Program-made: the position numbers and the translations under genes | Assembly (NCBI GenBank): GCA_031371785.1 | Contig: JANMKC010000010.1 | Location: 389-64,388, forward strand | DNA from: Flavobacteriales bacterium | GTDB lineage: Bacteria > Bacteroidota > Bacteroidia > Flavobacteriales_F > PHOS-HE28 | Direction of reading: 5' to 3' | Length of the DNA stretch: 64,000 nucleotides | The notes under the pieces: model-generated | Seen by the model: the letters and a program-made list of their open reading frames with translations, nothing else | What the model was told of the DNA's origin: nothing | The model's database searches: none | In this document: positions 2,078 to 53,404 of the stretch, piece after piece | How positions within the stretch are numbered: position 1 is the first letter of the stretch | Layout: every line of letters begins with the position of its first letter

Positions 2078-2218
2078 TGGTCGGTGTTGTGGGTTGATGT
2101 GGGTTTATGATCGATCGATGATCAATGTGTCTGTTGCCTTCCTGTGATGTTGATCAGCAGCAGCTTGGCAGGTCGGTGATGAACTCGGCGAGCACGCCAG
2201 CCTCGCGCATTGCGGTCT

Positions 2219-2728: not shown

Positions 2729-2755
2729 GTTCGTTCTGTTCGAGCGTGCGACGCC

Positions 2756-2995: not shown

Positions 2996-3175
2996 GATAG
3001 TTGATGTTGGTCTTTGGTTGCAGATGATCTTGATCCGCCACCTCCGTCATTGATAACGGGTTCACCTGTGGCGGGAAATGTCGAGCGGGTCAAGTCGCGC
3101 GAACGACTTCTTCGCGGTGCATGAAAGCACCGCAGCTGTGTTATGCTAACACAGGACTTCTTGAAAAAGCAATGA

Positions 3176-3583: not shown

Positions 3584-3725
3584 CAGGTCGCGAGTTTACT
3601 TCGGGTTCAAAGTGGTGGGGGTGGATTCCTTCATTATCCTTGGCAAGCTATTAGGCAACGAAACCCACGTCCCGGTCATAGGCCACGCTCGCACGGGATC
3701 GGTCCCGTGCAAGTGTGAGCCCTAG

Positions 3726-4241
3726 CTACTTGGCTTTGGCAGGCTGAAGTGCCATATCGCACTTGGAGCACTTGTCGCCTTTCATGCCCGTCACTTCCGG
3801 GTGCATGGGGCAGGCGTAGAGCGCCACGGGCTGCGTCATCGCCATTCCACAATGCGCGCACTTGGCATCCTTGGCACCCATCGCATCGGGGTGCATGGGA
3901 CAAGCGTACACGGCCGTGGTCATTGCCATGCCGCATTTCGGACACTTGGCGTCCTTGGCACCCATCGCATCCGGGTGCATGGGGCAGCAGTACATGGCGG
4001 CACTCGCAACAGCGACATCCTTGGGAGCCACTAAGGCCATGTGGCACTTGGGACACGTGTCGCCTTTCTTGCCAGTGACCTCGGGGTGCATGGGGCAACT
4101 GTAGACAGGTTCCTGCGCGGCAACGGCGGTACTCGCTGGGGCATGATCGTGCTGGGCAGCAACTCGCGATATGCACGGGTTCATGGTCATCAGTACAAGC
4201 GAAAGCGCCGTGCCGAGCAGGGAGGTTGAGAGGGTCTTCAT
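3726..4241 (-). CDS. Secreted protein with four tandem CPMHP-type heavy-metal-binding domains
   Basis: Start moved to MKTLSTSLLGTALSLVLM (ATG at 4239-4241). Four repeats of CPMHP(E/D)x5-7KCxxC(G/H/D)MA; underlying DNA is visibly tandem-repeated. Confidence 0.8.
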   Translation of the reverse strand: MKTLSTSLLGTALSLVLMTMNPCISRVAAQHDHAPASTAVAAQEPVYSCPMHPEVTGKKGDTCPKCHMALVAPKDVAVASAAMYCCPMHPDAMGAKDAKCPKCGMAMTTAVYACPMHPDAMGAKDAKCAHCGMAMTQPVALYACPMHPEVTGMKGDKCSKCDMALQPAKAK

Positions 4242-4399
4242 GGTTGTTGGTTGATCCGTATGTGATCCCCATTCTGCTGGGGCTGCGGAACAAGGAGCGG
4301 AAACCATGCCACTGGTCGCGGGCCAAGCAGATCCTTACTGGCGACCGCATGATCGCCGAGTATGATGCATTGCACGGCCTAATGCAGAATGGGGCGCAA

Positions 4400-6493: not shown

Positions 6494-6621
6494 GGCCCTG
6501 CTCGTTCAGTCGATGCTCGCGACCATCGTCGTCACTTGGAGCATGGTTGAAGATCTCTCACCATAGCGCTCCGGCATAGCACATGGTAGCGCCTTCCTGT
6601 TCGGTCCGGAGTCCATGGTGA

Positions 6622-8865
6622 TCAGCGGCCAAGAACGATCAGGGCCTTGCTTCCGACGGCAGTTTCGGTCCGCACGGTCAGCGTGTACACGCCTTTCGCG
6701 ACGGTGCGCAGATCGGAATGGAGCATACCGTTCACCGCGTTTACCCGCTCACTGCGCACCAAGGCGCCGACCGCATCGTACAGTTCGACGGTCGCGGGTC
6801 CCTTCAGCGTTCCGAGCATCACATCCACGCGATCGCTCGCGGGGTTCGGATAGATGCTGAAGTTGAGCGCAGCGCTCTCCTGTATCCCGATCGTGTTGCC
6901 GATGCCCACATCGTCCATGTACATGTTGTTGCCGAAGTTGCTTTCGGTGACGAACATGAACTGCACATCGGGCTGGCCCAGGACAAGGCCGAGATCCACA
7001 TGCTCGGTGCGCCACTGCGCGCTGGTGGGGGTGAATGTGCTTGTGTTCACACCTGTGGTGGAAAGGGTGCTTCCCTGCTTGTCGTAGATCGTGTTCCAGT
7101 TCGCGCCGCAATCCGTGCTCGCCTTCACCATGAAGCGATCCGTGGAAGCGGTGTTGTACTGGGCATAAGCCACCGAGAATTCGAGCGTAGTACCCGGTGT
7201 GGCCGCGTAGAGATCCACGCGCGGCATCAGCAAGTAGTCCAACTGGCCGGTGATGTCCATGCTTCCCGAGTAGTGGTCCATCTTCATGCTGCCCGCCGTG
7301 TTGCCGAAGCCGCCCACGGTAGCGCGCGTCATCTTGTTGTTCGGGTTGAAATGCACGTAGTTCCAACCATCGGGCGGGAAGGTGGTCGCTGCGAACCCTT
7401 CATTGAACGGCAGGTTCTGGATCGGATCGATCACGCGGAACGCTCCTTCCATCCGGTCGTTCAGTTCGTTGGGGTCATAGGTCCCGTTCGGCCCGCTGGT
7501 GTGCGCGCTGATCACATGTGCGCCAGAAAGGACCGCAGCGACCGGAAGATCGACGTTGGTGCTCGCACCGGGCGCCAGCGTACCGGCCCAGGAATAGCTG
7601 GGTTGAACAGAGCCGTCCACGTCAACGTCAATGGTCACTTGCGTCAGGTCGTTCGACCCGGCGTTCGTAAGCGTGACGGTCGGCAGCACCGATCCCGAAC
7701 AGATGGTATTATCGGTGGAGTAGAAATTGACCGTGGCGGTGGCGTTGGCCGGTGAAACGATCGCGGTGATCGCCGCATCGTTGGCCAGCGGCGTGGGGTC
7801 GATGCGCACGGTCGTGTTGCCGGTGTTGTTCACGAACCAGATGCGCCCGTCAGGACCCACCTTCACGCCCATGATGCCCGCCTGTCCGGTGGGTATCGTG
7901 CCGAGCAGTGCCGGCGTGCCGGTGACATCATAGATCCTGATATCGCCGTTGTCATGATCGCTCACGATCAAACGCCCCATCGTATAGTCGATCCCGCAGG
8001 GTTGTGTGGTCCAGGTGTCAACGATCTCCACAACCGCGCCCTCCACCTTCTTGTAGGATCCCAGTGTTTCGTTGGCCGTTCCGGGCACGGTGAGGTTGCC
8101 GGTGATGGTCCCCGAGTTCACGTTCATGCGTTTGACCTGCTTGTTGCCGCCATCGATGAAATAGAGCCAGCCGCCGATCTTGTCCAGCACCATGTGGCTG
8201 GGCACATCCGGCACGCGCGTCACGGGCACATCGATGTAGCGCCAGATCTTGCCTGCACTGTGGTTGTCATAGCCGGGGCCATGGTCCTGCACGAAATCGT
8301 AGCGACAGATGTTGCCGTTGTATCCGTCCATCACCCAGAACACTTTCGCACTGTCCGCCGCGATGCCCATCGCATAAGGGCTTTGGTGCAGCATGTCGAT
8401 GTGGCTTCCCAATGGATAGCCGCTCAACCAATCGTTCTGGAACACCGTGGCGAAGATGTTCAGGTCACCCAACCACAACGCGGGGCCCATGAAGGTGGGC
8501 GATGAGGTATTGGTGTTCTGTATCTCGCTCACCGCGGACCATTCGCCATTGTCGGAAAATGCGAGGGCACTGGGCATCCGCATGAAGTGGCTGCTGTGCG
8601 TGTCCTTGCGGTACTCGGCCGCCTGGCCAGGAAGACCCGCATTGTGAACGATCACCATGCTGCCGCCGTCGGACGCGCCTTTGTTCACGACCCAGAGTTC
8701 GTTCGTGAACGGTTTGAAATCCAGGTCGCGCGGATCGCTTACCTGATCAGCGGAGGTAACGATGTTGGTGTAGGTGAGCGCATCGCTGAGGTAGCGGTCG
8801 ATCGCTACCTGGCCATGGGCAAGTCCGGCGGTGGCCAACGTGATGAGTGAGAGGAAGTGTTTCAT
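6622..8865 (-). CDS. Large secreted beta-propeller/Ig-like protein with T9SS C-terminal sorting domain
   Basis: Signal MKHFLSLITLATAGLAHGQ; C-terminal SIYPNPASDRVDVML...GVYTLTVRTE CTD; function unknown. Confidence 0.7.
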   Translation of the reverse strand: MKHFLSLITLATAGLAHGQVAIDRYLSDALTYTNIVTSADQVSDPRDLDFKPFTNELWVVNKGASDGGSMVIVHNAGLPGQAAEYRKDTHSSHFMRMPSALAFSDNGEWSAVSEIQNTNTSSPTFMGPALWLGDLNIFATVFQNDWLSGYPLGSHIDMLHQSPYAMGIAADSAKVFWVMDGYNGNICRYDFVQDHGPGYDNHSAGKIWRYIDVPVTRVPDVPSHMVLDKIGGWLYFIDGGNKQVKRMNVNSGTITGNLTVPGTANETLGSYKKVEGAVVEIVDTWTTQPCGIDYTMGRLIVSDHDNGDIRIYDVTGTPALLGTIPTGQAGIMGVKVGPDGRIWFVNNTGNTTVRIDPTPLANDAAITAIVSPANATATVNFYSTDNTICSGSVLPTVTLTNAGSNDLTQVTIDVDVDGSVQPSYSWAGTLAPGASTNVDLPVAAVLSGAHVISAHTSGPNGTYDPNELNDRMEGAFRVIDPIQNLPFNEGFAATTFPPDGWNYVHFNPNNKMTRATVGGFGNTAGSMKMDHYSGSMDITGQLDYLLMPRVDLYAATPGTTLEFSVAYAQYNTASTDRFMVKASTDCGANWNTIYDKQGSTLSTTGVNTSTFTPTSAQWRTEHVDLGLVLGQPDVQFMFVTESNFGNNMYMDDVGIGNTIGIQESAALNFSIYPNPASDRVDVMLGTLKGPATVELYDAVGALVRSERVNAVNGMLHSDLRTVAKGVYTLTVRTETAVGSKALIVLGR

Positions 8866-8914
8866 TCTGTCGTGGGTTTGGGTCGAGGTTGGGATTGAGA
8901 AGGGCCGCTATGTT

Positions 8915-9700
8915 TCAATGTTCTTGTTGTGTCGCTACCACGAGTTGGTCCATCAACCGCGTGTTCAACGCACCGTCATCCGCGGAGGATGGCTCGTTGA
9001 GCAGATCGATATTGGCCAGCAACTTCTGTACATCCACCGGCAGCCATGCGGTGAGGACGCCGCCTTCTGGAAGGTCCGCATGCACAGGTGCGGCAGCGGT
9101 GCGCAGCATCGCATCACCGGTGCAACGGTGGTCGAACACATGGTCACTGCCGTCGATGATGCCATCGCCGTTGCTGTCCGCGCGGCCCTCCACTTGCAGG
9201 AAGCAATATCCTGAAGCGGCCGCCCCACTGAACATCGAGCTGCCGTTCATCGGCGGTGGCGCTTGCGCGGGATCGGAGTGGTTCATGTTGGATGCGAGCC
9301 CGACCCTCATGCGCAACTCATGCAAATGGCCTGCGGTCAGCGGTCCGAGCGCGATATCATTCGACCCAAAAGCCGCGTCTACCAGCAGGTATCCATCAGG
9401 GTATGTGGCGAGCGTCGCGCCAACATCGTCGGTCGCGGAAACGTCGGAGATGAAGAACCTCAGCGTGTCCAGCTTGAACACATGGCCGAAGTCATCCGTG
9501 TAGGTACTGCCCAGCTCATAGTCGTGCCCACTGTAGCGGAAGATGACCGCGAGGTGCTGCTGCACGGTGTGGATGGTTGAGGAGGAAGGTTCCACATCCA
9601 TGGTCTTATTGGTGCAGGCGGCAAGCAGCAGCACGTATGATATAACCCCTATGCCCACCAGTTTTGGCTGATGACTTTTCATGCTCGCTCGCTTGTTCAT
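8915..9700 (-). CDS. Lipoprotein, possibly MbnP-family copper-binding protein
   Basis: Start trimmed to MNKRASMKSHQPKLVGIGVISYVLLLAAC (lipobox). LRFFISDVSA, GHLHELRMRVGL, SGYCFLQVEG resemble MbnP-family pattern from memory (unverified). Confidence 0.45.
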   Translation of the reverse strand: MNKRASMKSHQPKLVGIGVISYVLLLAACTNKTMDVEPSSSTIHTVQQHLAVIFRYSGHDYELGSTYTDDFGHVFKLDTLRFFISDVSATDDVGATLATYPDGYLLVDAAFGSNDIALGPLTAGHLHELRMRVGLASNMNHSDPAQAPPPMNGSSMFSGAAASGYCFLQVEGRADSNGDGIIDGSDHVFDHRCTGDAMLRTAAAPVHADLPEGGVLTAWLPVDVQKLLANIDLLNEPSSADDGALNTRLMDQLVVATQQEH

Positions 9701-9707
9701 CGGAACA

Positions 9708-10442
9708 TCATGTTTTGCGGATGTAGGCATGGGAGCAGGGTCCACCATACAGGATGCGCACCTTCTCCGGCTTGTCAGCCAGGAAGACATCGCAGGCCAA
9801 GCGCACACCGGGGTTTGAATCGTTGCCTTCCACCGTGAGCTCCGGCACATGATAATCCATGAATATCACCACGGCGTTTTTCGGAAGACGGGGATAGACA
9901 TGGGTGAGACAACGGACCACCAGTTCGGTGTGCTCGAAGGCGGCACCTCCGGTGCCGCAGTCGATGTGGGCGAAGGCGATCTGTTCCGGAAGGTCGCGCG
10001 GCAGTGTCACCTCGAAGTCGCCTTGATGGATGATCGGCAGCGGCACACCGCACTCCTCCATGGTGCGGGTGAAGATCTCCTTGATGTTGCGCTGCGAGCC
10101 GAATTCGATATCGAACCGGTCGTACACATGGAACTCCCGCGTCGGTTCCAGTTCCTGGATCAGGCTGGCGATCACGGCGGCCGTGCTTCCGGTATAGCAG
10201 CCCAGTTCCACGAAAGCACCGGGTACATGCGTATCGAGCAGGCGTTCGATCAAGTGCTGCATGTTCGACACCTGCTGCATGCTCACCATATCCTCGCGGT
10301 GGTCGAACCGCGGTTGCAGTTCGAACGGCAGGCGCAACATGCCCACCATCTTGTTCAGGGTCTTTACCAGGACCGAAAGTTCCCGGCGGTCCGTTCCATG
10401 GAACGGGCCTGTTGCAAGTTCATCAAATTGCTCGGTCGACAT
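9708..10442 (-). CDS. TylF/MycF-like class I SAM-dependent methyltransferase
   Basis: GAFVELGCYTGSTAA SAM-binding loop, IAFAHIDCG...AVVIFMDYH resembles macrocin O-methyltransferase family. Confidence 0.6.
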   Translation of the reverse strand: MSTEQFDELATGPFHGTDRRELSVLVKTLNKMVGMLRLPFELQPRFDHREDMVSMQQVSNMQHLIERLLDTHVPGAFVELGCYTGSTAAVIASLIQELEPTREFHVYDRFDIEFGSQRNIKEIFTRTMEECGVPLPIIHQGDFEVTLPRDLPEQIAFAHIDCGTGGAAFEHTELVVRCLTHVYPRLPKNAVVIFMDYHVPELTVEGNDSNPGVRLACDVFLADKPEKVRILYGGPCSHAYIRKT

Positions 10443-10517
10443 ACGGGATCCAAAAGGTTGAGGAAAACACGAACGCCCATGCGCTGCGCGCCCAGGCTCA
10501 CACGGACAGCAACCGCA

Positions 10518-10925
10518 TCAGATGCGCAGCACGCGGATCCCCGTCAGTCGTTCACGTCCGGAAAGCGGAGGCGGACGGCCATGCACCTCGGCCACGACCA
10601 AGGCGGGCATCGCGTCCGCTGCGGTCGCCATCGGAAATGTGCCGATCATCGCAGCCAAGCTGAACACGTTGCGCACTTCACAGGTCGCATCGTACTTCAC
10701 CGCTTGTGCATGCGTGTAGTCGCAGCAATGTTTCGTCACGCGGGGTTGATCGGCCTGTCCATCCGTATGGCAACAGGGAGCGATGCTGATCCATGCGCAG
10801 GAGGTCTTGCCCGAACTCAGGCAGTCCATGCGCCACAATGCGGGCGCGGTGGTAGCCGACAAAAGCAGCAGCGCCAAGGGCGTCACCAGCCAGTTGTTCC
10901 TGCGGATGATCCCCAAGCCACGCAT
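10518..10925 (-). CDS. HYC_CC_PP-like small membrane-anchored Cys-rich protein (paralog 2)
   Basis: 135 aa, same length and layout as 3176-3583: TM, APCCHTDG, KHCCDYTH, GRPPP, tail RLTGIRVLRI. Confidence 0.6.
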   Translation of the reverse strand: MRGLGIIRRNNWLVTPLALLLLSATTAPALWRMDCLSSGKTSCAWISIAPCCHTDGQADQPRVTKHCCDYTHAQAVKYDATCEVRNVFSLAAMIGTFPMATAADAMPALVVAEVHGRPPPLSGRERLTGIRVLRI

Positions 10926-11116
10926 TGCGCATCAAACCTAAGCAAGCCGCAGCCGTTCAGCTCCTCCCATATCGCGCCCTCTTGGGTTCCTGGTGCTGGT
11001 CGTGAAGGATGCAACACCAAGCTGCATTGGACCGAAAGATCCCAATGGTCCACACGATCATGCGGCCCGGGCGGAAGCCTTGCTCCTACTTTCACGCTCT
11101 GATCCAACACCCGCTC

Positions 11117-11896
11117 ATGCAACGACCCTTACTCCTTTCGCTTTCCCTTCTCACCGCCGCTGGTCTCACTGCCCAAACAGCCGTGGACTTCACGTTGAAC
11201 GACTGCGCGGGTGCGAGCCACCACCTGTTCGATGAACTGGATCAAGGGAAGATCGTGATCCTGGAGTTCGCCATGATCCCCTCATGCACGCCTTGCATAC
11301 AGGCTGGTGGGATCCTCCAGACCGTGCGAAACAATTTCGAGGCGACCAACCCCGGCCGGGTGAAATGGTACACATGGGGTGGCGTCGATGCCTATACCTG
11401 CGCGCAGATGAGCGATTGGGAGACCAGCCACAGCCTGGTCCCGGATGGCACCTTCATCGATGGTAGTGCGATGGCCACCAACTACGGAGGCTTCAGCATG
11501 CCCACCATCGTGGCGCTGGCGGGCACTGATCACAACAAGATCTTCGAGCAGCATGGCTTCGTGACCAACCTGCAAGGCCACATCACCGATGCCATCAACG
11601 CTGCGCTGACCGTTTCCGTGAACGAGGTACCGATGTCAACGATCAGTGCTTCGCTAGCACCGAACCCGGCGAACGACGTGGTGAACCTGAACGTGAGCAT
11701 GCGTAGCACAATGGATCTGTCCATCACCGTGTATGACAATGCTGGCCGCGTGGTGAAGAGCCTCCCCAAGCAGGCAATGACCACTGGGGCGCACACCTTG
11801 CCGATAGCCGTGGACGAACTGGCCATCGGGCCCTACTTGCTGGGCATCTCCGGTTCGTTCGGTTCGCAACGTATCCCCTTCGAAGTGGTCCGCTGA
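11117..11896 (+). CDS. Thioredoxin-fold (redoxin-like) protein with T9SS C-terminal domain
   Basis: Start trimmed to MQRPLLLSLSLLTAAGLTAQ; CxxC motif IPSCTPC; CTD ASLAPNPANDVVNLNV...GPYLLGISG. Confidence 0.65.
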   Translation: MQRPLLLSLSLLTAAGLTAQTAVDFTLNDCAGASHHLFDELDQGKIVILEFAMIPSCTPCIQAGGILQTVRNNFEATNPGRVKWYTWGGVDAYTCAQMSDWETSHSLVPDGTFIDGSAMATNYGGFSMPTIVALAGTDHNKIFEQHGFVTNLQGHITDAINAALTVSVNEVPMSTISASLAPNPANDVVNLNVSMRSTMDLSITVYDNAGRVVKSLPKQAMTTGAHTLPIAVDELAIGPYLLGISGSFGSQRIPFEVVR

Positions 11897-11908
11897 ACTC
11901 CGTTGATC

Positions 11909-12598
11909 ATGAAGATATCTTGCATAGGTCTGGTCGCATGGTCGCTCGCAAGTGCCAGTGGACTCCAAGCGCAGACGTTCACGGTGACGCCCAACGACAC
12001 GATGTGGGTGGTCGTGCCACCATCTGGGATCTCGATCTTCGATATCTACCAGGAGAACATCACCAGCGCCGCGATCGACTTCGTATGGTCACCGGTGTTC
12101 AGCGACATTCCGGCGGGCTGGGATTATTCGATGTGCGATCTCGGGCATTGTTATATCGGCCTGCCGGCGACCGGCGCGATGGATCCCGTTCAGCCGGGTG
12201 AACAAGGCTTCCTTGGCCTGAACCTGAACCCGCAGAACATCAGCGGCAGTGGAATGGTGCAGTTGCTGGTGAACGACGTGAACGATCCCAACAACGGCCA
12301 GGTGCTCACGTGGATATTCGAGTCGCAGGCCACGATCGGCATCAACGAGGCTTCGCCGTTCGCGAATGTCAGTGTTTACCCTAACCCTGCTGAAGAGGCG
12401 ATGACGGTGTCCGGGTTCTTCGACGTGCGACCCGAACACCTCACGGCCATTGACGCGATGGGAAGGCGGATCGCCTTGGCGGCGAACATGGGTGGGAAGA
12501 CGATCACAGTGGACCTCACCTCGCTGGCGGCTGGCCACTATGTGCTGGAGATGTCACAGGGCGACCAGTTGTTGCGCCGCCCCTTCATCAAGCGCTGA
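11909..12598 (+). CDS. Hypothetical secreted protein with T9SS C-terminal domain
   Basis: Signal MKISCIGLVAWSLASASGLQAQ; CTD VSVYPNPAEEAMTVSG...GHYVLEMSQG. Confidence 0.65.
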   Translation: MKISCIGLVAWSLASASGLQAQTFTVTPNDTMWVVVPPSGISIFDIYQENITSAAIDFVWSPVFSDIPAGWDYSMCDLGHCYIGLPATGAMDPVQPGEQGFLGLNLNPQNISGSGMVQLLVNDVNDPNNGQVLTWIFESQATIGINEASPFANVSVYPNPAEEAMTVSGFFDVRPEHLTAIDAMGRRIALAANMGGKTITVDLTSLAAGHYVLEMSQGDQLLRRPFIKR

Positions 12599-12599
12599 C

Positions 12600-13460
12600 G
12601 TGTTCCGGTGGCGTGACCTGGTGTTCGCTGTCGCGCTGGTCTGCACTACCGGTGCGTATGCTTCCATCGCCCGCACGGTCCACATCGATCGGGGCATCTT
12701 CACGACCGTTCATGGAACCACCTTCCCGTGGTTGGCCTTCAACAGCACGCCGCTGTTCGATCCGTTGAACGCGGTGATCGTTCTTTCTCCGGGCGATGTG
12801 TTGGAACTCACCGTGGTGAACAACGACACCACGGTGCATGGTATCGCCATCGCTGGGGTTCTGTCGCAACCCGGCAGCATCCTTCCCGGCGATTCGCTCA
12901 CCGTGGAGCTGGTCACCACCATCGAGCGGAACTACATCTACAGCGACCCGACCGCGTATCCGAAGAACACCTATCTCGGTCTGGCGGGGATGATCTGCGT
13001 CACCGCCGCCACCAGCCAGGTCTATTTCTGGAACATCAAGGAACACGAGCGATCGTTCAATGACACGCTCGCGAGCGGTGGCACGGTGGATTGGAGCACC
13101 TATGATCCGGATTATTTCACCATCAACGGCCTGAGCCATCCCGATCTGCAGAACGACCTCACGGCGAAGATCAACTGCACGCTGGGTGACACGGTACGCA
13201 TCTTCGTCACGAACACCGGACAAAGCGCGCACGCGATCCACTTCCACGGCTTCCATTGCACGGCGCTGTACAATTCTGACGCGTTACGGACCGGCTGGAG
13301 CAAGGACACCTGGCCGCTGCGTTCCATGCAGTGCGCGTTGCTGGAATTCGTTGCGGACAAGGTCGGCCGATACTCCGTGCATGATCACAACCTCGTAGCC
13401 GTGAGCGGTGGCGGCACACACCCCAATGGCATGTTCATCATTACCGATGTGGTGCCCTGA
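12600..13460 (+). CDS. Cupredoxin/multicopper-oxidase-like protein with degenerate copper sites, no T9SS domain
   Basis: GTG at 12600, 2 nt after upstream stop; HAIHFHGFH (HxHxHG-like) and YSVHDHNLVAVSGGGTHPNGM, where the expected HCH is HDH. Confidence 0.6.
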   Translation: MFRWRDLVFAVALVCTTGAYASIARTVHIDRGIFTTVHGTTFPWLAFNSTPLFDPLNAVIVLSPGDVLELTVVNNDTTVHGIAIAGVLSQPGSILPGDSLTVELVTTIERNYIYSDPTAYPKNTYLGLAGMICVTAATSQVYFWNIKEHERSFNDTLASGGTVDWSTYDPDYFTINGLSHPDLQNDLTAKINCTLGDTVRIFVTNTGQSAHAIHFHGFHCTALYNSDALRTGWSKDTWPLRSMQCALLEFVADKVGRYSVHDHNLVAVSGGGTHPNGMFIITDVVP

Positions 13461-14682
13461 TCCCCTGTTCCGGTCGTTGATGATCACGGGCTGTATGGCG
13501 GGTGGACTGGTCACGTCCGCACAGAACACCATCACCTACAATTGCATCCTGCGTAGCAACGCGGGTGAACAGACCATGTGGGACGGCGTGAGCTTCCGGG
13601 TCTATGGCATCACGTCCTTGTTGGCGGAATCACCGCACGCTCCCGCAAAGACGCTCTTCTGCAACGAGGGGGATTCCGTCGTGCTCAGTACGCTCAGTTT
13701 CTCGCAGGGCGAGCATCACACCATCCATTTGCACGGCTTGGATGTGGACACGCGCAATGATGGCGATCCCGCTACGTCGTTCTACCTCGCGCACGCGCAG
13801 GACACGACCTACTCGTTCCGGGCAACGCATGCAGGCACTTATCTCTATCACTGTCACGTGGCTGATGTGGTACACGTGCAAATGGGCATGTACGGGTTGA
13901 TCGTAGTGAAGGCGGCGGGCGGTGCGCATACCGCGTGGACGGGAGGCCCGGCCTATGACCAGGACAAGAACTGGATCATGTCGGAAATGGACCGATCATG
14001 GCACGATACCATCCCGGTGCATGACCTGGTGTTGGACACTGTACACATACCGCCGTACCGTCCGGACTATTTCCTGATCAATGGCATGTCGCACCAGGAA
14101 CTCGCGGACGATTCGATCCGCATCAGCGCAGCGGTGGGAGAGAACGTCTACCTCCGCATGGGCAACATCGGTTTTTTCACCAACCGGCTCGTGTTCCCGC
14201 CGGAAGTGGATGCCGAAGTGATCGACTCCGATGGCCGCCCCATCCCGAACCCTTTCCACACCGACACGCTGGACATGATGCCGGGCGAACGGTATGGCGT
14301 GATGCTGACGCCACTGCAAGAGTTCGATGGCTCCCTCGCCATGGGCTACGTGAACATGAACACCGGTTCGCTGTGGGATACGCAGCAAGTGCCCATCCAT
14401 GTGCAAGGGATGATCGGTATCGATGAAGCAAGTATGTCCGTGGATGCGATGATCCATCCGAACCCGGGCAGTGATGCGATCATGATCACGCTTCCGGATG
14501 CCATGGCCTCCGCCGCGGATCACTTTGTGATCATCGACATCCTCGGGGAACAACTCCTGCAAGGCGGATTCGCTCGCAACGCACCAATGGATGTGAGCCG
14601 TCTGGCCCAAGGCTCCTACACACTGCGGTTGTTCGATGTGCGAGGTGTGCCCTTGGCGGTGGGGCGGTTCGTGAGGGAGTAA
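13447..14682 (+). CDS. Multicopper-oxidase-like cupredoxin protein with intact T1-type motif and T9SS C-terminal domain
   Basis: ATG at 13447 overlaps upstream stop by 14 nt (alternative ATG at 13480); HHTIHLHGL, YLYHCHVADVVHVQMGMYG; CTD MIHPNPGSDAIMITL...GSYTLRLFD. Confidence 0.7.
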   Translation: MWCPDPLFRSLMITGCMAGGLVTSAQNTITYNCILRSNAGEQTMWDGVSFRVYGITSLLAESPHAPAKTLFCNEGDSVVLSTLSFSQGEHHTIHLHGLDVDTRNDGDPATSFYLAHAQDTTYSFRATHAGTYLYHCHVADVVHVQMGMYGLIVVKAAGGAHTAWTGGPAYDQDKNWIMSEMDRSWHDTIPVHDLVLDTVHIPPYRPDYFLINGMSHQELADDSIRISAAVGENVYLRMGNIGFFTNRLVFPPEVDAEVIDSDGRPIPNPFHTDTLDMMPGERYGVMLTPLQEFDGSLAMGYVNMNTGSLWDTQQVPIHVQGMIGIDEASMSVDAMIHPNPGSDAIMITLPDAMASAADHFVIIDILGEQLLQGGFARNAPMDVSRLAQGSYTLRLFDVRGVPLAVGRFVRE

Positions 14683-25031: not shown

Positions 25032-25496
25032 TTACTTGTCGGTACCAAGTCGTGGCAGCTCGATCTCATCGGGCACCACGTAGAGGCCGGGGAACTCATC
25101 GCTGAGATCAGCGCGCAATTTGTCCGCAGGCAGCTTGCTGCGCAGGTCGCCCACACGAACACGGAAATTGGGCGCGAAGTAGCTCAGGTAGGCGGGCACG
25201 TTCGGATGGCGCCCCAAGAAAGAGCGACGGATCTCCTCGGCCTTGGTGCGATCGCCGAGGAAGAGCTGCACGCGGTAGCCTTTCAGCGGTTGCTTCTTCG
25301 ATGCGTACTCTTTCATCAACGACGAGATGCGGGCGCTCTCGTGTATCGTCACGTGGCCGGTGTCGCCGCTCACCGCGATGGGCTTCGATACCATTGGCGT
25401 GGTGACCGGTGCGGATGGCGTGAAGACGCGCGGGTCCGTTTGCGCGCGCAGTTGAACAGCGAGCGAGAGGGCTAGGAAGATGGGCAGATGATGCAT
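25032..25496 (-). CDS. SPOR-domain protein
   Basis: Start trimmed to MHHLPIFLALSLAVQLRAQ; C-terminal GYRVQLFLGDRTKAEEIRRSF...FRVRVGDLRSKLPADKL SPOR-like repeat. Confidence 0.65.
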   Translation of the reverse strand: MHHLPIFLALSLAVQLRAQTDPRVFTPSAPVTTPMVSKPIAVSGDTGHVTIHESARISSLMKEYASKKQPLKGYRVQLFLGDRTKAEEIRRSFLGRHPNVPAYLSYFAPNFRVRVGDLRSKLPADKLRADLSDEFPGLYVVPDEIELPRLGTDK

Positions 25497-25538
25497 CGGT
25501 GCGAAGGTATTGGTGGTGGTTGGTTGTCGGAGAAATGC

Positions 25539-25620
25539 AGTGGGCAGTAGCAGTAGGCAGCGGCAGTAGGCTGCGGAACGTGTGCGGTACATCTGCCTAC
25601 TGCTACTGCCGCTGCCCACT
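25539..25620. repeat. Low-complexity long hairpin (cagtag/ctactg units)
   Basis: gcagtagcagtaggcag (25544-25560) is the exact reverse complement of ctgcctactgctactgc (25593-25609); outer agtgggcag/ctgcccact also pair. Confidence 0.8.
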
Positions 25621-34641: not shown

Positions 34642-35925
34642 ATGATGACGTTGTTGATCCTTGCGGTGATCGTGCTCGGCATATTGGCCGTGACGCGCCT
34701 GAGCCGCGTGTACGAACTGACCGCCGCGCTGCGCGATAAGCGCGAAGAGGAGATCAGCGACCGCGACAGCAAGATGAACGCGCGCCTGCTGATGGCCTTC
34801 CCCTTCGCGTACTTCGCCTTCTTCCTCTGGCTCACCGTCCACTACAAGAAGCACATGCTTCCGGTAAGCGCCAGTGAGAATGGCGTATGGCTCGACGACC
34901 TGATGAACTTCAACTGGGCGATCCTGATCGTCGCCTTCTTCATCACGAACATCCTGCTGTTCTACTTCGCTGGCAAGTACTACCACCGCAAAGACCGCCG
35001 GGCCTACTACTACCCGCACAACAACAAGTGGGAACTAGCGTGGACGATCGTACCGGCCATCGTGATGATCGCCATCATCATCTACGGGCTGAACGTCTGG
35101 AACCGCATTACCGCTGCACCGCCCGCAGGCACACCACAGGTCGAGCTGTACGCGCAGCAGTTCAACTGGACCGCCCGCTATCCGGGGCTTGACGGCAAGC
35201 TGGGCGCAACGGATTTCCGGCTGATCAACGACAAGAACCCGCTGGGCATCGTAACGCCGGGATCGATCAAGGAGCGGCTCGATGAACTTGATACGTTGAT
35301 CGCAGCGGATGAAAAGCGCTTGGTGAACGAGGATGCCTACCTGCCACCGGACAGGAAGGACGAACTGGAGATCCACCTCACGCACGAGCGCCGTGTAGCG
35401 GGCCGCGTGGTGAACCTGCGCACATTGATGGAGCAGGACATCGCGGAGAAAGGTGAAGCCAGCCAGTACAAGTACGGTGCTGACGACATCGTGGTGAAGG
35501 AATTCCACCTGCCGGTGCGCGTGCCGGTGGAACTGGTGATCCGCAGCAAGGATGTGATCCACAGCGCCTTCATGCCGCACATGCGCGCGCAGATGAACGC
35601 GGTGCCGGGCATGACCACGCGGATCCACATGAAACCGACGATCACCACGGACAGCATGCGCACCATCATGCACGATCCGGCCTTTGAATACCTGCTTCTG
35701 TGCAACAAGATCTGCGGTGCCAACCACTTCAACATGCAGATGCCGCTGACGGTGGAACCCGAAGGGGCTTACAACGTCTGGCTCGCTCAGCAGAAAGGCT
35801 TCGAGACGGGAGGACCCGCGAAGACGGAAGCCGCACCGATGGACACAACCCAAGCCAAGGCGACGACCGCCACGGCCATGAACGAAACTCCGGCCCTTCC
35901 GCCGGGGGAACCGAAAAAGAACTGA
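34642..35925 (+). CDS. coxB: Cytochrome c oxidase subunit II
   Basis: Two N-terminal TM helices, cupredoxin domain with VIHSAF and CuA-type CNKICGANHFNM. Confidence 0.85.
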   Translation: MMTLLILAVIVLGILAVTRLSRVYELTAALRDKREEEISDRDSKMNARLLMAFPFAYFAFFLWLTVHYKKHMLPVSASENGVWLDDLMNFNWAILIVAFFITNILLFYFAGKYYHRKDRRAYYYPHNNKWELAWTIVPAIVMIAIIIYGLNVWNRITAAPPAGTPQVELYAQQFNWTARYPGLDGKLGATDFRLINDKNPLGIVTPGSIKERLDELDTLIAADEKRLVNEDAYLPPDRKDELEIHLTHERRVAGRVVNLRTLMEQDIAEKGEASQYKYGADDIVVKEFHLPVRVPVELVIRSKDVIHSAFMPHMRAQMNAVPGMTTRIHMKPTITTDSMRTIMHDPAFEYLLLCNKICGANHFNMQMPLTVEPEGAYNVWLAQQKGFETGGPAKTEAAPMDTTQAKATTATAMNETPALPPGEPKKN

Positions 35926-35927
35926 CG

Positions 35928-37736
35928 ATGAGTTCCGTAGCGACCGCCCCTGCCGCCGTGCAAAGCCATGGCCACGCGGAACATCACCACCACGAGGAGA
36001 GCTTCATCTCGAAGTACGTCTTCTCGCAGGATCACAAGATGATCAGCAAGCAGTTCCTGGTCACCGCGATCATCATGGCCTGGGTGGCCGTGGTGATGTC
36101 GATCATGTTCCGCCTGCAACTGGCGTGGCCCAATGAGGGCTTCGCGTTCACACACTTCTTCCTCGGCGACAAATGGGCACCGGCCGGTGTGCTGAAGCCC
36201 GACATGTACCTCGCGCTGGTCACCATCCACGGCACCATCATGGTGTTCTTCGTGCTTACCGGTGGCTTGAGCGGCACGTTCGCGAACCTGTTGATCCCCT
36301 TCCAAGTGGGCGCGCGCGATATGGCGAGCGGCTTCCTGAACATGCTTTCGTACTGGGCCTTCTTCATCAGCAGCGTACTGATGATCAGCTCGCTCTTCGT
36401 GGAAGGTGGCCCCGCTTCCGCAGGCTGGACGATCTACCCGCCCTTGAGCGCATTGCCCCAAGCCATTTCGGGTTCGGACACCGGAATGACCTTGTGGATA
36501 TCGAGCATGGCGGTCTTCATCGCCAGTGCGCTGCTCGGCGGTTTGAACTACATCGTCACGGTCCTCAACCTGCGCACTGCCGGCATGAAGATGACACGGC
36601 TGCCGCTCACGGTGTGGGCGCTGTTCATCACGGCTGTGCTGGGCGTGCTCTCCTTCCCCGTGCTGCTCAGCGCTTCGTTGCTGCTGATGCTCGACCGCCT
36701 GCTGGGAACCAGCTTCTACCTGAGCGAGATCCACATCGGTGGTGAGCCGCTGGACCACATGGGTGGAAGCCCCATCCTTTTCCAGCACCTGTTCTGGTTC
36801 CTGGGCCACCCGGAAGTGTACATCGTGCTGCTGCCGGCCTTGGGCATCACCTCGGAAGTGATCGCCACGAACAGCCGCAAGCCCATCTTCGGATATCGCG
36901 CGATGATCGGATCCATTCTTGCGATCGGCTTCCTGAGCTTCATCGTGTGGGGCCACCACATGTTCATCACCGGCATGAACCCTTTCCTCGGAAGCGTGTT
37001 CGTGTTCACCACCCTGCTCATAGCGATCCCCAGCGCGGTGAAGGTGTTCAACTACATCACCACGTTGTGGCGCGGCAACATCGTGCTCTCACCGGCCATG
37101 CTCTTCAGCATCGGGCTGGTGGCCACCTTCATCGCAGGCGGCCTCACCGGCATCATCCTCGCGGACAGCGCGCTGGACATCCCGATCCACGACACCTACT
37201 TCGTCGTTGCGCACTTCCACATCGTGATGGGCATGAGCGCCATTTTCGGCATGTTCGCCGGCATCTACCATTGGTTCCCGCGCATGTACGGCCGCATGAT
37301 GAACACCAAGCTCGGCTACGCGCACTTCTGGGTCACCTTCATCTGTGCGTTCGGCGTGTTCTTCCCCATGCACTACATCGGCTTGGCCGGTGCGCCGCGC
37401 CGCTACTACAGCTACAGCGAGTTCACCATGTTCAACGGGGTCATCGACCTGAACATCCTGGTCACCTTCTTCGCCATCACCGGTGCGCTCGCGCAGATCC
37501 TCTTCACCTACAACTTCTTCCACAGCATCTGGCGCGGGCAGAAGAGCGTGCAGAACCCGTGGAAGAGCAACACCCTGGAGTGGACCTCACCCGTGAAGCC
37601 CATGCACGGCAACTGGGCCGGCCCGCTGCCCACGGTGTACCGCTGGCCTTATGACTACAGCAAGCCCGGCAAGGCGGAGGATTTCGTTCCTCAGAACGTG
37701 CCGCTGGAAGAAGGTGAGGAGGAGGTACACGGGTGA
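35928..37736 (+). CDS. ctaD: Cytochrome c oxidase subunit I
   Basis: Start trimmed to MSSVATAPAAV (ATG 35928, 2 nt after coxB stop); LFWFLGHPEVYIVLLPALG, WGHHMF, VVAHFHIVM. Confidence 0.92.
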   Translation: MSSVATAPAAVQSHGHAEHHHHEESFISKYVFSQDHKMISKQFLVTAIIMAWVAVVMSIMFRLQLAWPNEGFAFTHFFLGDKWAPAGVLKPDMYLALVTIHGTIMVFFVLTGGLSGTFANLLIPFQVGARDMASGFLNMLSYWAFFISSVLMISSLFVEGGPASAGWTIYPPLSALPQAISGSDTGMTLWISSMAVFIASALLGGLNYIVTVLNLRTAGMKMTRLPLTVWALFITAVLGVLSFPVLLSASLLLMLDRLLGTSFYLSEIHIGGEPLDHMGGSPILFQHLFWFLGHPEVYIVLLPALGITSEVIATNSRKPIFGYRAMIGSILAIGFLSFIVWGHHMFITGMNPFLGSVFVFTTLLIAIPSAVKVFNYITTLWRGNIVLSPAMLFSIGLVATFIAGGLTGIILADSALDIPIHDTYFVVAHFHIVMGMSAIFGMFAGIYHWFPRMYGRMMNTKLGYAHFWVTFICAFGVFFPMHYIGLAGAPRRYYSYSEFTMFNGVIDLNILVTFFAITGALAQILFTYNFFHSIWRGQKSVQNPWKSNTLEWTSPVKPMHGNWAGPLPTVYRWPYDYSKPGKAEDFVPQNVPLEEGEEEVHG

Positions 37737-49040: not shown

Positions 49041-49049
49041 CTTGTCGGG

Positions 49050-49241
49050 TTATCGGGTATGCTGCATTACAACTACGGGTTCACGCTTGCCGGTCTTGCC
49101 CAAATCGTGGCCTTCGTATTCATCCAGCTGGCCGACACCGCTTTTCGGTGTGCCCTGCCCGCTCTTTTTGCCGTCGCCCTTCTTGTCTTGCTTGACATCG
49201 TGAGCTTTGGTCGTGCTCACTTTCTCATCGCGCTTTGTCAT
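49050..49241 (-). CDS. Small Lys-rich hydrophilic protein (63 aa), hypothetical
   Basis: Ends 9 nt before the GH130 start, same strand; GC-rich third positions; no homology recognised. Confidence 0.35.
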   Translation of the reverse strand: MTKRDEKVSTTKAHDVKQDKKGDGKKSGQGTPKSGVGQLDEYEGHDLGKTGKREPVVVMQHTR

Positions 49242-49574
49242 TGTAGCAGGTTTTGAATTTGCTGGGCTGGCAAGTCGGCCCTCGGAACTTCCACGGCCTT
49301 CGTGTTGAGTTGGTGCAAACGATCATCCGATCAGGTGGGCATTCGGCGTGAATGCGCTGATCGCTTGACACCACTGTGATCCGCGCGGATCGGTGACAAA
49401 GGATCGGTCGATCTAATTGAGGCGCGATGGGGTGATCACGCCTCAATGCGCATGATGACGGGATCACCGGGGTGGTCTTGCCCCATATCCTGCTCTGCCC
49501 CAAGCGCCTTTGGTTGAAGGACGATCCTCAGGGTCGATCTACCTGCCGGCCTTCCGCGTTCATGAATGTCAGGC

Positions 49575-49717
49575 TCAGCCTTCGAGCGTCCGCTTCACCT
49601 CCACCATCTCGAACGCTTCCACGTTGTCACCCACCTTGATGTCGTTGAAGTTCTTGATGCTGAGGCCACACTCATAGCCATGCGTCACCTCCTTCGCATC
49701 GTCCTTGAAGCGCTTGA
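49575..49717 (-). pseudogene. Detached copy of the infB 3' end (last 46 codons plus stop)
   Basis: Encodes [46 protein letters not shown], against ...RTLDG* in infB; 128 of 131 core nt identical to 50753-50883. Confidence 0.85.
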
Positions 49718-49765
49718 ACCAACGCGAGGGTCTTCGGCGTTATCCGGAAGCCATTGCGGATCGGC

Positions 49766-49773
49766 TACTTTTG
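49766..49773 (+). promoter_or_regulatory. TAnnTTTG-type box immediately upstream of the first cassette gene
   Basis: cggctacttttg, same 12-mer core as upstream of actA; only 4 nt before ATG 49778. Confidence 0.3.
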
Positions 49774-49777
49774 TTCC

Positions 49778-50227
49778 ATGCTTCTTTGCGAGTACTCTTC
49801 GGGGGGGTTGTTGGACCTTCTCGCGAAGTTCGCGCCCATCGGAACGGCCTTCGGCGTGGTGGTGGCCGGTCTCACCTATTGGTGGAACGTACGGCAGAAA
49901 CGTTCCGAACTGATGCTGAAGCTCTACGAGAAATTCTACGAAGGGACCTTGCACAAGGACATGCGACGCAGGATCGACTACCGGACCTTGGAGAACGATC
50001 TGGCCGCCGATCCGTTACTGGAAGAGAAACTGGTGGACTACCTGAACTTCTTCGAGTTCATGGCCTCGATGTGGTCGCTTGGCCAACTGAAGGCGGTGGA
50101 GATCGAGAAGCTCTTCGCCTATTACCTGGACCTGATCGCTTCCTCGGAATACCTGTCCGGCTATCTGCGGAAGAACGGGTTCGAGGACATGGAACGCTAT
50201 ATGGCCCAGCGTGGGCAAAAAGGATGA
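49778..50227 (+). CDS. Hypothetical N-terminally membrane-anchored helical protein (DUF4760-like architecture, unverified)
   Basis: ATG 49778 (ORF track starts at TTG 49754); TM FAPIGTAFGVVVAGLTYWW followed by a helical domain of about 110 aa. Confidence 0.55.
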   Translation: MLLCEYSSGGLLDLLAKFAPIGTAFGVVVAGLTYWWNVRQKRSELMLKLYEKFYEGTLHKDMRRRIDYRTLENDLAADPLLEEKLVDYLNFFEFMASMWSLGQLKAVEIEKLFAYYLDLIASSEYLSGYLRKNGFEDMERYMAQRGQKG

Positions 50228-50703
50228 CAAGGAACGTTGACCATTTGTTCGTCTACGGCACGTTGCGGCCCGGATCATCGGCGCATGCGCGCCGCATCCT
50301 CAAGAGCAGTGCGGAGCATGTCGGCAAGGGCGAAGTGCGCTCGGCCCGTATGTTCGATCTGGGCGAATATCCCGGTGCCGTGCGGACCCGGAGCAAGCGC
50401 GAGTTCATCATCGGCGATGTCTTCCGCATCAATAAGAGCAAACTGTCCGAAGTGATGGAGGCCTTGGATGCCTATGAGGAGTTCGACCCCAGCGACCCCA
50501 AGGGCTCGCTCTATGTGCGCAAGATCACCAATGTGAAGGTGGAGGATACGGATCTGAAGGCGTGGATCTATTGGTTCAATCGCCCGGTGGAACAGGCGGT
50601 ACCGATCGAGGAAGGAGATTACAGCCGCGTGGCCGTGCGCTATGCGACAAGCCGCAACGCGCGCGTTTCCCTGCCGCGCCGTTCGAAGGCACGGGTCGTT
50701 TAG
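50224..50703 (+). CDS. Gamma-glutamylcyclotransferase-like (GGCT/AIG2-like) protein
   Basis: ATGA overlap with upstream gene; N-terminal LFVYGTLRPG motif, GEYPGAV, VFRI...LDAYEEF...YVRK layout typical of the AIG2/GGACT fold. Confidence 0.6.
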   Translation: MTRNVDHLFVYGTLRPGSSAHARRILKSSAEHVGKGEVRSARMFDLGEYPGAVRTRSKREFIIGDVFRINKSKLSEVMEALDAYEEFDPSDPKGSLYVRKITNVKVEDTDLKAWIYWFNRPVEQAVPIEEGDYSRVAVRYATSRNARVSLPRRSKARVV

Positions 50704-50740
50704 TGCTGCTGTTCCGGCGCGCGATGAGCGCTTGTGCGAC

Positions 50741-53404
50741 CTATCCGTCCAACGTCCGCTTCACCTCCACCATCTCGAACGCTTCCACGTTGTCACCCAC
50801 CTTGATGTCGTTGAAGTTCTTGATGCTGAGTCCGCACTCATAGCCATGCGTCACTTCCTTCGCATCGTCCTTGAAGCGCTTGAGGTCGCTGAGGTCGCCG
50901 GTATAGATCACGATGCCGTCGCGGATCAAACGCACCTTGGCGTTGCGCGCGATCTTGCCGTCGAGCACGTAGCAGCCTGCCACGGTGCCCACCTTGGATA
51001 TCTTGAAGGTGTTGCGCACTTCCGCCGTGCCCATGATCTTCTCCTCCTCCTTCGGCGCGAGCATGCCTTCCATGGCCTGCTTCAGCTCCTCGATGGCGTT
51101 GTAGATGATCGAATACAGGCGGATCTCGATCTCCTCGCTTTCCGCCAGCTTGCGCGCACCCACCGTAGGGCGCACCTGGAAGCCGACGATGATAGCGTTG
51201 GAGGCCGATGCGAGCAGCACGTCACTTTCGGCGATGGGGCCCACGGCCTTGTGGATCACGTTCACCTTGATGTTCTCGGTGCTCAGTTTGAGCAGTGAAT
51301 CGGTGAGCGCTTCCACGGAACCGTCCACGTCGCCTTTCACGATCACATTGAGCTCCTTGAAATCGCCGATCGCCAAGCGGCGGCCGATCTCGTCGAGGGT
51401 GATGTGCTTGCGCGTGCGCATGCCCTGCTCGCGCTGAAGTTGCTGGCGACGCGTGGCGATCTGGCGCGCTTCGCGATCGTCCTCCATCACATGGAAGTGA
51501 TCGCCCGCGTTGGGCGCACCGTCCAGACCGAGGATCGATATCGGCGTTGATGGGCCCGCTTCCGTAACAGCTTGGCCGCGTTCGTTGAACATGTTCCGCA
51601 CGCGGCCGCTGTACTGGCCCACGAGCAGTACCTCGCCCTTGTGCAGGGTGCCCGCCTCCACCAGCAGGGTGGTCACGTAACCGCGACCCACTTCCAATGT
51701 GCTCTCGATCACCACGCCCATGGCGCGTTTGCCAGGGTCGGCCTTCAGGTCCAACAGATCAGCTTCGAGAAGCACCTTCTCCAGGAGCTGGTCCACCCCG
51801 GTGCCCTTCTTCGCACTGATCTCCTGCGTCTGGTATTTGCCGCCCCACTCCTCCACCAGGATGTTCATCTGGCTGAGCTGATCGCGGATCTTCTCCGCGT
51901 TGGCGTTGGGCTTGTCGATCTTGTTGAAGGCGAAGACCATGGGTACGCCGGCGGCTTGCGCATGGTTTATCGCTTCGCGCGTCTGCGGCATCACGCTGTC
52001 GTCCGATGCGATCACGATGATGGCGATGTCCGTGACCTGCGCGCCGCGTGCACGCATGGCGGTAAAGGCTTCGTGGCCCGGCGTATCGAGGAAGGCGATG
52101 CGCTTGCCGTTCTCCAGTTCAACACTGTACGCGCCGATGTGCTGGGTGATGCCTCCGGCCTCGCCCGCGATCACGTTCGCTTTGCGGATGTGGTCGAGCA
52201 GGGAGGTTTTGCCATGGTCCACGTGGCCCATGACCGTGACGATGGGCGCGCGATGCACAACGCGCGTCGGATCGTCCACCTCCTCCATCACGTTCTCCTC
52301 GTTGTCCGCACCGACGAACTCCACGGTGAAGCCATACTCTTCCGCGATCACCGCGAGCGTTTCCGCATCGAGGCGCTGATTGATGCTCACCATCATGCCC
52401 AACGCGAAACAGGCCTTGATGATGTCCGTTACCGGCACGCTCATCATGGAGGCCAGTTCGCTCGCCGTCACGAATTCGGTCACCTTCAAGGTCTTGCCAG
52501 CGAGATCGCGGGCGGCCTGTTCCTCCTCGAAGCGTTGGAAGCGTTGATCCCGTTTCTCGCGGCGTACTTTCTGGCCACGGCCTTTACCGCCTCCAGTGAG
52601 GCGGGCGAGCGTTTCGCTCACCTTGCGCTTCACCGCGTTCTCGTCCAACTCGCCGGGACGACCGGTGGAAGGTGGGGTGCGCTGCTCTTGCTGAACGGTG
52701 CGCTCCACGTTCACCGGGCCGGGCTTCACGATGCGCTTGCGGCGACCACGATCGTTGTCTCCGGGGCGTTCGCTCGGCTTGCGTTCCCGCTCAACGGGCA
52801 GCTCGATCTTGCCCAGGCTTTTCACTCCTGTGAGCTTCGCCACGTTCACGCGGATGGTCTCCGGCTCGGCGACAGGCTCAGGCGCACGGGCAGGGGCAAT
52901 AGCGGCCGGGGCAGAAGCAGGGACAGGAGCAGTGGCTTCCGGCTCTGCCTTGGCGGTCTTTTTCGCGGTTTTCTTGGGTGGGTCCAGATCGATCTTGCCC
53001 AGGGTCTTCGGGCCTTCGACCTTGTCGGCCTTGGCCTTGATCACTTCATCCGGTGGCTTCGCGACAGGAGGGACAGCTTGTGTTTCTGGGGCAGGCGCAG
53101 GGGCAAGCGCAGGGGCAGGGACGGGAGGTGCCTTGCGCGGTGCCTCTTTCGAAACGCTGTGCATGATCACGCTCTCACGCTCCTGGCGCGCTTGCACGGT
53201 CTGCTTGCTCGCTTCCTTCTCCGCTTTGTCGGTTCCGAATTGCCCTAGCAGCAACTCATACTCCGCTCCGCTGATCTTGGCGTTGGGGTTCTGCTCCACG
53301 GAGTAGCCCTTGGAGGCCAGGAATTCCACCACGGTGTGCAACCCTTGGTTGAACTCGCGAGCCACCTTGCTCAATCGCACTGTCTTGTCCGCCGTTTCGC
53401 TCAT
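50741..53404 (-). CDS. infB: Translation initiation factor IF-2
   Basis: [25 protein letters not shown] GTPase motifs; disordered Ala/Pro/Lys-rich N-terminal region. Confidence 0.95.

Follow-up and report, generated by a model that had tools for sequence, protein, structure and literature searches.

The closest described counterpart of the locus reported here is the insertion of e14 or phage 21 at icd in Escherichia coli K-12, where the element supplies the 3′ end that completes the gene, the original 3′ end of the resident gene is left, displaced, as a direct-repeat pseudogene (icdC) at the far side, and the two copies differ by synonymous and conservative D/E changes (PMC13626634). Deletion between those repeats would restore a chimeric functional gene. 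We find the same arrangement, in each of these respects, at infB, the gene for translation initiation factor IF-2, in a 64,000-nucleotide stretch of DNA from a Flavobacteriales bacterium (the window; positions 389 to 64,388 of contig JANMKC010000010.1, assembly GCA_031371785.1), in which the end of infB occurs twice in direct orientation around a short insert of two genes. The two systems differ in scale and equipment, as e14 is about 15 kb long and carries an integrase and an excisionase next to icd, whereas the insert at infB measures 1.0 kb and holds two cargo genes, with no recombinase found in 64 kb. They differ also in the target, here infB, and in recurrence, which was nil among 125 related loci.

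Cis-mobilizable elements (CIMEs), which are decayed integrative and conjugative elements (ICEs) or integrative and mobilizable elements (IMEs) retaining attL and attR without genes for integration or transfer (PMC5704250), offer a second comparison. The infB locus resembles them in having direct repeats that include a conserved gene end, cargo between the repeats and no recombinase, but CIMEs are recognised through a cognate ICE or IME of the same att specificity, and none with infB specificity was found in the 125 related loci, in the viral contigs scanned or in the literature searched. A preliminary description of this DNA had called the 3′ ends of core translation genes uncommon integration targets, which overstates the case, as the 3′ ends of rplL, rpsI, rpmG and lysS are regularly targeted by streptococcal ICEs, with direct repeats of 12-54 bp (PMC4701971). 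The 3′ end of a translation gene seems unexceptional as a class of target, and infB itself seems to be unreported, with no published case of its use as an attachment site in the literature that we searched. The third comparison is with Campbell-type insertion, in which one crossover within a short homology duplicates the segment around the incoming DNA and no enzyme of the element is needed. In such events, and in homology-facilitated illegitimate recombination, donor and recipient alleles become the two copies, as they appear to have done at infB; the known events come mostly from laboratory constructs or transformation experiments, whereas here the intermediate is deduced from its product. 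To our knowledge, no natural Campbell-type case that fixed a two-gene module at an essential translation gene has been described to date. With the present locus, infB joins the genes whose ends are known to be duplicated around an insert, and the case is a minimal one, limited to two cargo genes and with no recombinase found.

The duplication was recovered by a repeat search as a direct repeat of 139 nt at 96% identity (49579-49717 versus 50745-50883, 1166 nt from start to start), and the same search returned no second long repeat of this kind elsewhere in the window. When the diverged final four codons are included the homology extends to 143 nt, the two copies being separated by 1023 bp (Table 1), and a 26-nt probe from the repeat matched just these two copies, where 0 matches were expected by chance. 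The proximal copy forms the end of the intact infB gene, whereas the distal copy is an orphan fragment that has an in-frame stop upstream and lacks a usable start. Both translations run to EVKRTL(E/D)G before the stop codon, with D in the proximal and E in the distal copy. Nine of the 143 nt differ, of which six are synonymous, one produces the D/E change and two convert the stop TAG to the stop TGA. In the core the differences are GAA/GAG, TGC/TGT and GGA/GGC (proximal/distal), all of them synonymous, and the last four codons read TTG-GAC-GGA-TAG in the proximal copy versus CTC-GAA-GGC-TGA in the distal one. A copy of the distal type can be recognised by the signature GAG…TGT…GGC…CTCGAAGGCTGA, and the proximal-type junction by the infB end TTGGACGGATAG followed by GTCGCACAAGCGCTC.

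This pattern of substitution was evaluated by simulation, in which nine random substitutions were introduced into an infB-end copy over 200,000 rounds. Outcomes that preserved both frame and stop and altered no more than one amino acid had P = 3e-5, and with seven random substitutions placed in sense codons no more than one altered amino acid was obtained with P = 2e-4. Because the observed pattern is so improbable under random change (P about 3e-5), we conclude from the comparison of the two sequences that the copies are two once-functional infB alleles, both shaped by coding constraint. Most of the preliminary description stands on these results: the infB end is indeed present twice, in direct orientation and 1023 bp apart, as repeat search, probe and alignment all confirm; the three core mismatches are synonymous and the ends are LEG and LDG as it had stated, with the D/E difference a conservative non-synonymous change; coding constraint on both copies, which disfavours a decaying in-situ duplicate, is upheld by the simulation; and no recombinase lies between the repeats, the 1023 bp being filled by two intact cargo genes. 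Its proposal that an integrating element had supplied an infB end of its own in place of the resident one survives in part, as displacement fits the LDG end of the proximal copy and the LEG end of the orphan, while nothing shows the incoming DNA to have been a site-specific integrating element.

As to which end is the resident one, the C-terminus LEG, as in the orphan copy, occurs in 11 of 18 close infB homologues and LDG in none of the 18, and the bases after the orphan stop, GCCTGAC, are similar to the TCCTGAC that follows the infB stop in related locus L002. Because LEG is the majority state in the clade and the bases after the stop resemble those of L002, the orphan distal copy is most simply read as the displaced resident end, in which case the end now used by infB would be imported, at least partly. 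Attempts to assign the single-nucleotide polymorphisms (SNPs) in the first 50 nt to the resident or the imported state by way of relatives were uninformative, the relatives being split between both. In the protein collection searched, the full-length infB protein clusters with no other, and D886E, the hypothetical allele of an unoccupied site, was absent.

No other infB is as close to either copy as the copies are to one another, the nearest others being 85-89% identical in that part of the gene, and as the two differ at only nine of 143 nt we infer that the donor was a close relative. The longest identical run between them is 78 nt, and the repeat also opens with 28 nt that are identical in both and contain the palindrome AAGCGCTT. 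At the centre of the repeat lies the 26-mer ATCAAGAACTTCAACGACATCAAGGT (50807-50832 and 49641-49666), which is invariant, synonymous sites included, in close relatives and in 54 metagenome contigs (L094-L147). This invariance is probably explained by a strong bias towards C/G-ending codons at two-fold degenerate residues, and its extent across the clade suggests an alternative to a close donor, namely that the central 78-nt identical block was homogenised or is constrained by codon bias.

No integrase, transposase or recombinase domain was detected in the open reading frames (ORFs) scanned across the window. The space between the repeats is taken up by two overlapping plus-strand genes, which leave flanks of just 60 nt and 37 nt. 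In the loci of 111 relatives, no integrase family was seen two or more times in the ORFs that come first downstream of infB, and viral contigs scanned with the infB C-terminus and with the family of the first cargo protein yielded no relatives. In sum of these searches we see no sign of a dedicated infB-targeting element. No significant DNA hairpins were found at the two insert junctions.

Related infB loci were surveyed for the same duplication in 80 genome and 54 metagenome sequences, of which 125 had at least 300 nt downstream of the gene, and none of the 125 carried a second copy of its own infB end. In L002, L003, L093 and more than 35 of the 54 metagenome loci, infB is followed by a convergent SPOR-domain gene and the operon for alternative complex III (ACIII), without the insert. 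None of those relatives has the cargo, a GH130 gene or a glycosyltransferase gene beside infB, and no homology between the insert and infB-downstream DNA was seen in any relative compared. The spacer between infB and the SPOR-domain gene is variable and holds unrelated genes in L003, L098, L111, L122, L125, L135 and L145, none of which has a duplication; these inserts lie at 8700-11600 in L003 (two genes), 1680-3490 in L111, 7263-8624 in L122 and 9409-10615 in L125, and the inserted genes include one for a 550-aa protein with a type IX secretion system (T9SS) tail and one for a 387-aa putative outer-membrane protein. Judged by this synteny, accessory-gene turnover in this Bacteroidota clade has a hotspot in the spacer downstream of infB.

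In the window itself the SPOR-domain gene (25032-25619) and the ACIII operon (from 25809) sit 25 kb from infB in the opposite orientation. As the two are displaced and reversed in this way, a segment of about 25 kb (roughly 24.5-49.5 kb; 24500-49574), which also holds the cytochrome c oxidase genes (34642-37736), reads as inverted relative to the order typical of the clade. No repeats were found at the inversion breakpoints. As to the empty site expected from the preliminary description, relatives without the insert exist, but a clean junction of infB directly to the sequence at 49574 and leftward was not found in the relatives, because the downstream flank has been rearranged by the inversion. 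The exact DNA pattern across the orphan stop (ACGCTCGAAGGCTGAGCCTGACATT) gave 0 matches in JGI metagenomes.

Because all tests for a dedicated element were negative and the locus is a general hotspot, we favour, at a probability of about 0.45, the homology-driven capture of DNA from a close relative by a single crossover in the infB end, carried out by the recombination machinery of the host. The incoming DNA of ~1.17 kb would have consisted of the infB 3′ end of a related lineage followed by a self-contained two-gene module, and one reciprocal crossover, driven by homology on the highly conserved infB sequence, would have fallen within the last 143 nt of the resident gene. Entry could have been as a circle, in a Campbell-type insertion, or through a one-ended homologous join combined with an illegitimate one. 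Either route would give an infB with a resident 5′ part and an imported 3′ part, then the cargo, then the orphan resident infB end, the essential gene being intact throughout. We infer the circular or one-ended intermediate, the close-relative donor and the enzyme of the crossover from this product. RecA should still be able to delete the insert through the 143-bp direct repeats and so leave a chimeric functional infB (compare e14 excision at icd). Read in this way, the locus would be a very clean natural example of an essential gene that serves as an insertion point and is undamaged since the incoming DNA supplies a new 3′ end. Such a minimal case prompts one to ask whether homologous recombination by itself can leave the footprint usually taken as proof of a site-specific integrase, a question of relevance for island-finding software, as such programs read repeats of this kind as att sites.

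Several considerations weigh against homology-driven capture. Direct repeats of a gene 3′ end, one copy of which completes the gene, are the classic footprint of a site-specific integrase, and integrases are commonly lost. Few natural cases in which a very small circle entered by RecA-mediated Campbell insertion have been documented, and in homology-facilitated illegitimate recombination the recipient DNA is as a rule replaced and not duplicated. The identical first 28 nt with the palindrome AAGCGCTT are compatible with the core site of a recombinase, a matching recombinase could be encoded outside the 64-kb window, and neither a donor genome (infB followed by this cargo) nor the clean empty site was found.

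The same considerations lead to the rival that survives best, which is in line with the preliminary description: a prophage, ICE or IME with site-specific integration, its attP bearing a 143-nt imitation of the infB terminus, would have lost its integrase and all remaining functions, leaving a CIME-like remnant of attL, attR and two cargo genes that could move only if a recombinase were provided in cis or in trans. We regard this as doubtful, though it deserves serious attention, as the architecture is identical to that of icd-e14-icdC, including the synonymous and D-to-E differences (PMC13626634), the CIME concept is established (PMC5704250), tyrosine integrases frequently target housekeeping and translation genes at their 3′ ends (PMC4701971), and the identical 28-nt block with its palindrome stands at the 5′ edge of the homology, where an e14-type core would lie. 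Against it, the 1023 bp hold two intact genes with short flanks and no remnant of an integrase, and no recombinase domain was present in the ORFs scanned across the window. A duplicated infB end was seen at 0 of 125 loci and no recurrent integrase in the 111 relatives; the infB end occurred in no viral contig scanned, and an infB att site was not found in the literature searched. The direct repeats of the streptococcal elements, at 12-54 bp, are also far below 143 bp (PMC4701971).

A different possibility is that the insert is an active mini-cassette without a recombinase of its own. In this proposal, which we consider improbable, the 1.17-kb unit circularises via its 143-bp repeats, spreads by transformation or vesicles and enters the infB of related hosts again, with the ultra-conserved infB end serving as its homology landing pad, so that infB is never damaged. 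The repeats form the exact limits of a compact and self-contained unit, the repeat centre is invariant across the clade, with its 26-mer common to the 54 metagenome contigs, and the early end of an independent contig from the same sample, L001, 53 nt short of prediction, hints at a second configuration. The insert is a singleton, however, with no second case in the 125 related loci and with cargo protein clusters of a single member, its cargo relatives elsewhere are not tied to infB, and a related strain in the same sample would account equally well for the early contig end, as L091 shares the 30-mer. If true, this proposal would describe a minimal route, dependent on RecA or on a recombinase in trans, for moving accessory modules.

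We also weighed an artefact of assembly or binning, in which a strain mixture in the metagenome was stitched together at shared infB sequence. The source is a contig of 66,964 nt from a metagenome-assembled genome (MAG), the segment next to the insert is inverted relative to all relatives, and the early end of L001 implies heterogeneity in the sample. L001 itself (1095 nt; a Logan contig from an independent k=31 assembly of run SRR20217216) corresponds to positions 49688-50782 of the window at 100% identity. It covers the junction of the insert with the truncated infB copy (K841), together with the distal-specific SNP at 49689, as well as the junction of the insert with the proximal stop. Since both junctions are reproduced in L001, a simple assembly artefact is unlikely, and the possibility of an artefact, which the preliminary description had raised, is countered by this contig. 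In addition, the junction between cargo and truncated infB and the distal SNP lie inside a single non-branching contig; the stitching of two full infB alleles would yield one hybrid gene and no truncated second copy; and the identical run is at most 78 nt, so assemblers with longer k-mers can resolve the copies. Taken with these points, the stitching of strains has very little probability.

The ends of L001 carry some further information. Its right end, at 50782, is exactly where the k=31 graph of the window must branch, whereas on the left it stops at 49688, 53 nt before the 49635 that was predicted, which suggests that SRR20217216 also holds a distal-type 30-mer with a different neighbour. 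The source of this second neighbour may be an infB allele that is unoccupied or excised, or simply a related strain; L091 carries the same distal-type 30-mer. Contigs built at k=31 do not separate a circle from the integrated form.

Weakest of all is the possibility that the infB end was duplicated in tandem in situ, that an insertion or rearrangement came next and that the copies then diverged. The copies are indeed direct, close and more alike than either is to any other infB, and the locus is prone to rearrangement, one inversion breakpoint lying no more than 534 nt away. The reading is far-fetched even so, because an orphan would decay neutrally, the observed pattern has P = 3e-5 under random substitution and an estimated P of about 0.02 even with one fifth of the changes in the constrained functional copy, and the cargo between the copies is not duplicated. 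Insertion of an insertion sequence (IS) or transposon was considered separately and rejected. Such elements are marked by a transposase, terminal inverted repeats and a target-site duplication of 2-15 bp; here there is no transposase, the insert ends lack inverted repeats, and the duplication is 143 bp with non-identical copies.

Table 1. Features at and beside the infB locus, in window coordinates.
Feature	Coordinates	Strand	Description	Basis
infB (translation initiation factor IF-2)	50741..53404	-	887 aa, intact; last 143 nt are the proximal repeat	Pfam
Proximal repeat copy	50741..50883	-	functional infB 3′ end (…KRTLDG, stop TAG)	repeat search, translation, alignment
Insert between repeats	49718..50740		1023 bp; GC and GC3 (GC content at third codon positions) host-like	
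ORF2	50224..50703	+	159 aa, gamma-glutamyl cyclotransferase-like (GGACT/AIG2)	Pfam, PHROG and PDB matches
ORF1	49778..50227	+	149 aa, N-terminal transmembrane helix and all-helical DUF4760-like domain	Pfam, homologues, AlphaFold2 model
Candidate -7 promoter	49766..49773	+	TACTTTTG, just upstream of ORF1	reading of the sequence
Distal repeat copy	49575..49717	-	orphan infB 3′ fragment, 46 codons and stop TGA (…KRTLEG)	repeat search, translation
Spacer between orphan infB end and GH130 gene	49041..49574		534 nt; one inversion breakpoint	synteny comparison
Hairpin	49415..49447	-	13-bp stem, no T-tract, -12.7 kcal/mol, z = -3.1	strand folding

Turning to the cargo, the first gene of the insert, ORF1, matched DUF4760 (PF15956) at 1.5e-3 and 19.2 bits, under the Pfam cutoff of 25, while its homologues and fused forms scored 26-32 bits, above that cutoff. 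The ORF1 family comprises 844 representatives, in which the motifs EKFYE and LVDYLNFFEF are conserved. Its AlphaFold2 model reached a mean confidence (pLDDT) of 84.7, and a fold search of the model in the PDB returned nothing at E < 0.8. The true start of ORF1 may be a TTG at 49808/49811. The second gene, ORF2, whose ATG overlaps the ORF1 stop (ATGA), belongs to the GGACT/AIG2-like family by its match to PF06094 (2.2e-22, 80.3 bits, cutoff 22.8), with further matches to phrog_2520 (7e-18) and to E. coli YtfP (PDB 1xhs, 1.5e-6). In terms of described families, the module pairs a relative of E. coli YtfP (PF06094) with a protein whose homologues match DUF4760 (PF15956). Each cargo protein forms a cluster of one member, and at third codon positions the cargo has a GC content of 0.77-0.79, equal to that of the host genes, which also fits a donor close to the host. 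The PADLOC defence models gave no match for ORF1, ORF2 or a 92-aa ORF at E <= 0.1, and NCBIfam assigned no function to the cargo genes.

Upstream of ORF1 the candidate promoter TACTTTTG fits the Bacteroidota -7 consensus, which we take to be TAnnTTTG. A sigma-70 promoter scan of the locus returned nothing, terminator-like sites were no more numerous than expected by chance, and no tRNA, tmRNA or Rfam family was detected at the locus.

Homologues of ORF1 and ORF2 were adjacent at every site examined in other genomes, three chromosomal sites in all, usually with the same 4-nt overlap. In L082-L088 the pair is flanked by a LUD_dom gene and a metallophosphatase gene, in L090 it lies between tpiA and a gene of the beta-lactamase family, and it is also present in L089; no flanking repeats or infB pieces were found around these homologues (L082-L090). 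In 10 of 10 longer homologues tested (P0145, P0147, P0160, P0182, P0195, P0200, P0214, P0224, P0225 and P0233) the two domains are fused as DUF4760-GGACT, in the gene order of the cassette. Because they are adjacent wherever examined and fused in all ten of these proteins, the DUF4760-like and GGACT-like proteins are, as far as gene context can tell, an obligate and sometimes fused pair that forms one functional unit, probably a membrane-tethered enzyme module. In L088 a hicA/hicB-like toxin-antitoxin pair (1688-2133) directly follows the DUF4760-GGACT pair and is absent from the otherwise syntenic L082-L087.

The host gene itself matched the Pfam models IF-2 (3.9e-40), GTP_EFTU (1.5e-34) and IF2_N, is transcribed from the minus strand within a rimP-nusA-infB operon and encodes a protein 85% identical in amino acids to the infB product of a Flavobacteriales MAG. 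The GH130 and infB proteins of the window had no record in the contig index. The strong hairpin of Table 1, at a distance of about 130 nt on the downstream side of the orphan end, may once have served as the terminator of infB.

Elsewhere in the window, genes for GldM and for proteins with T9SS tails are of Bacteroidota/Flavobacteriales-like character. At 1187-14682 lies a copper-handling cluster with an HMA/DUF3347 protein, a P-type ATPase, MbnP, multicopper oxidases and T9SS-tailed proteins, and one ORF of this cluster, which has no Pfam match, contains Cys/His-rich tandem repeats of 84-90 nt at 2760-4105.

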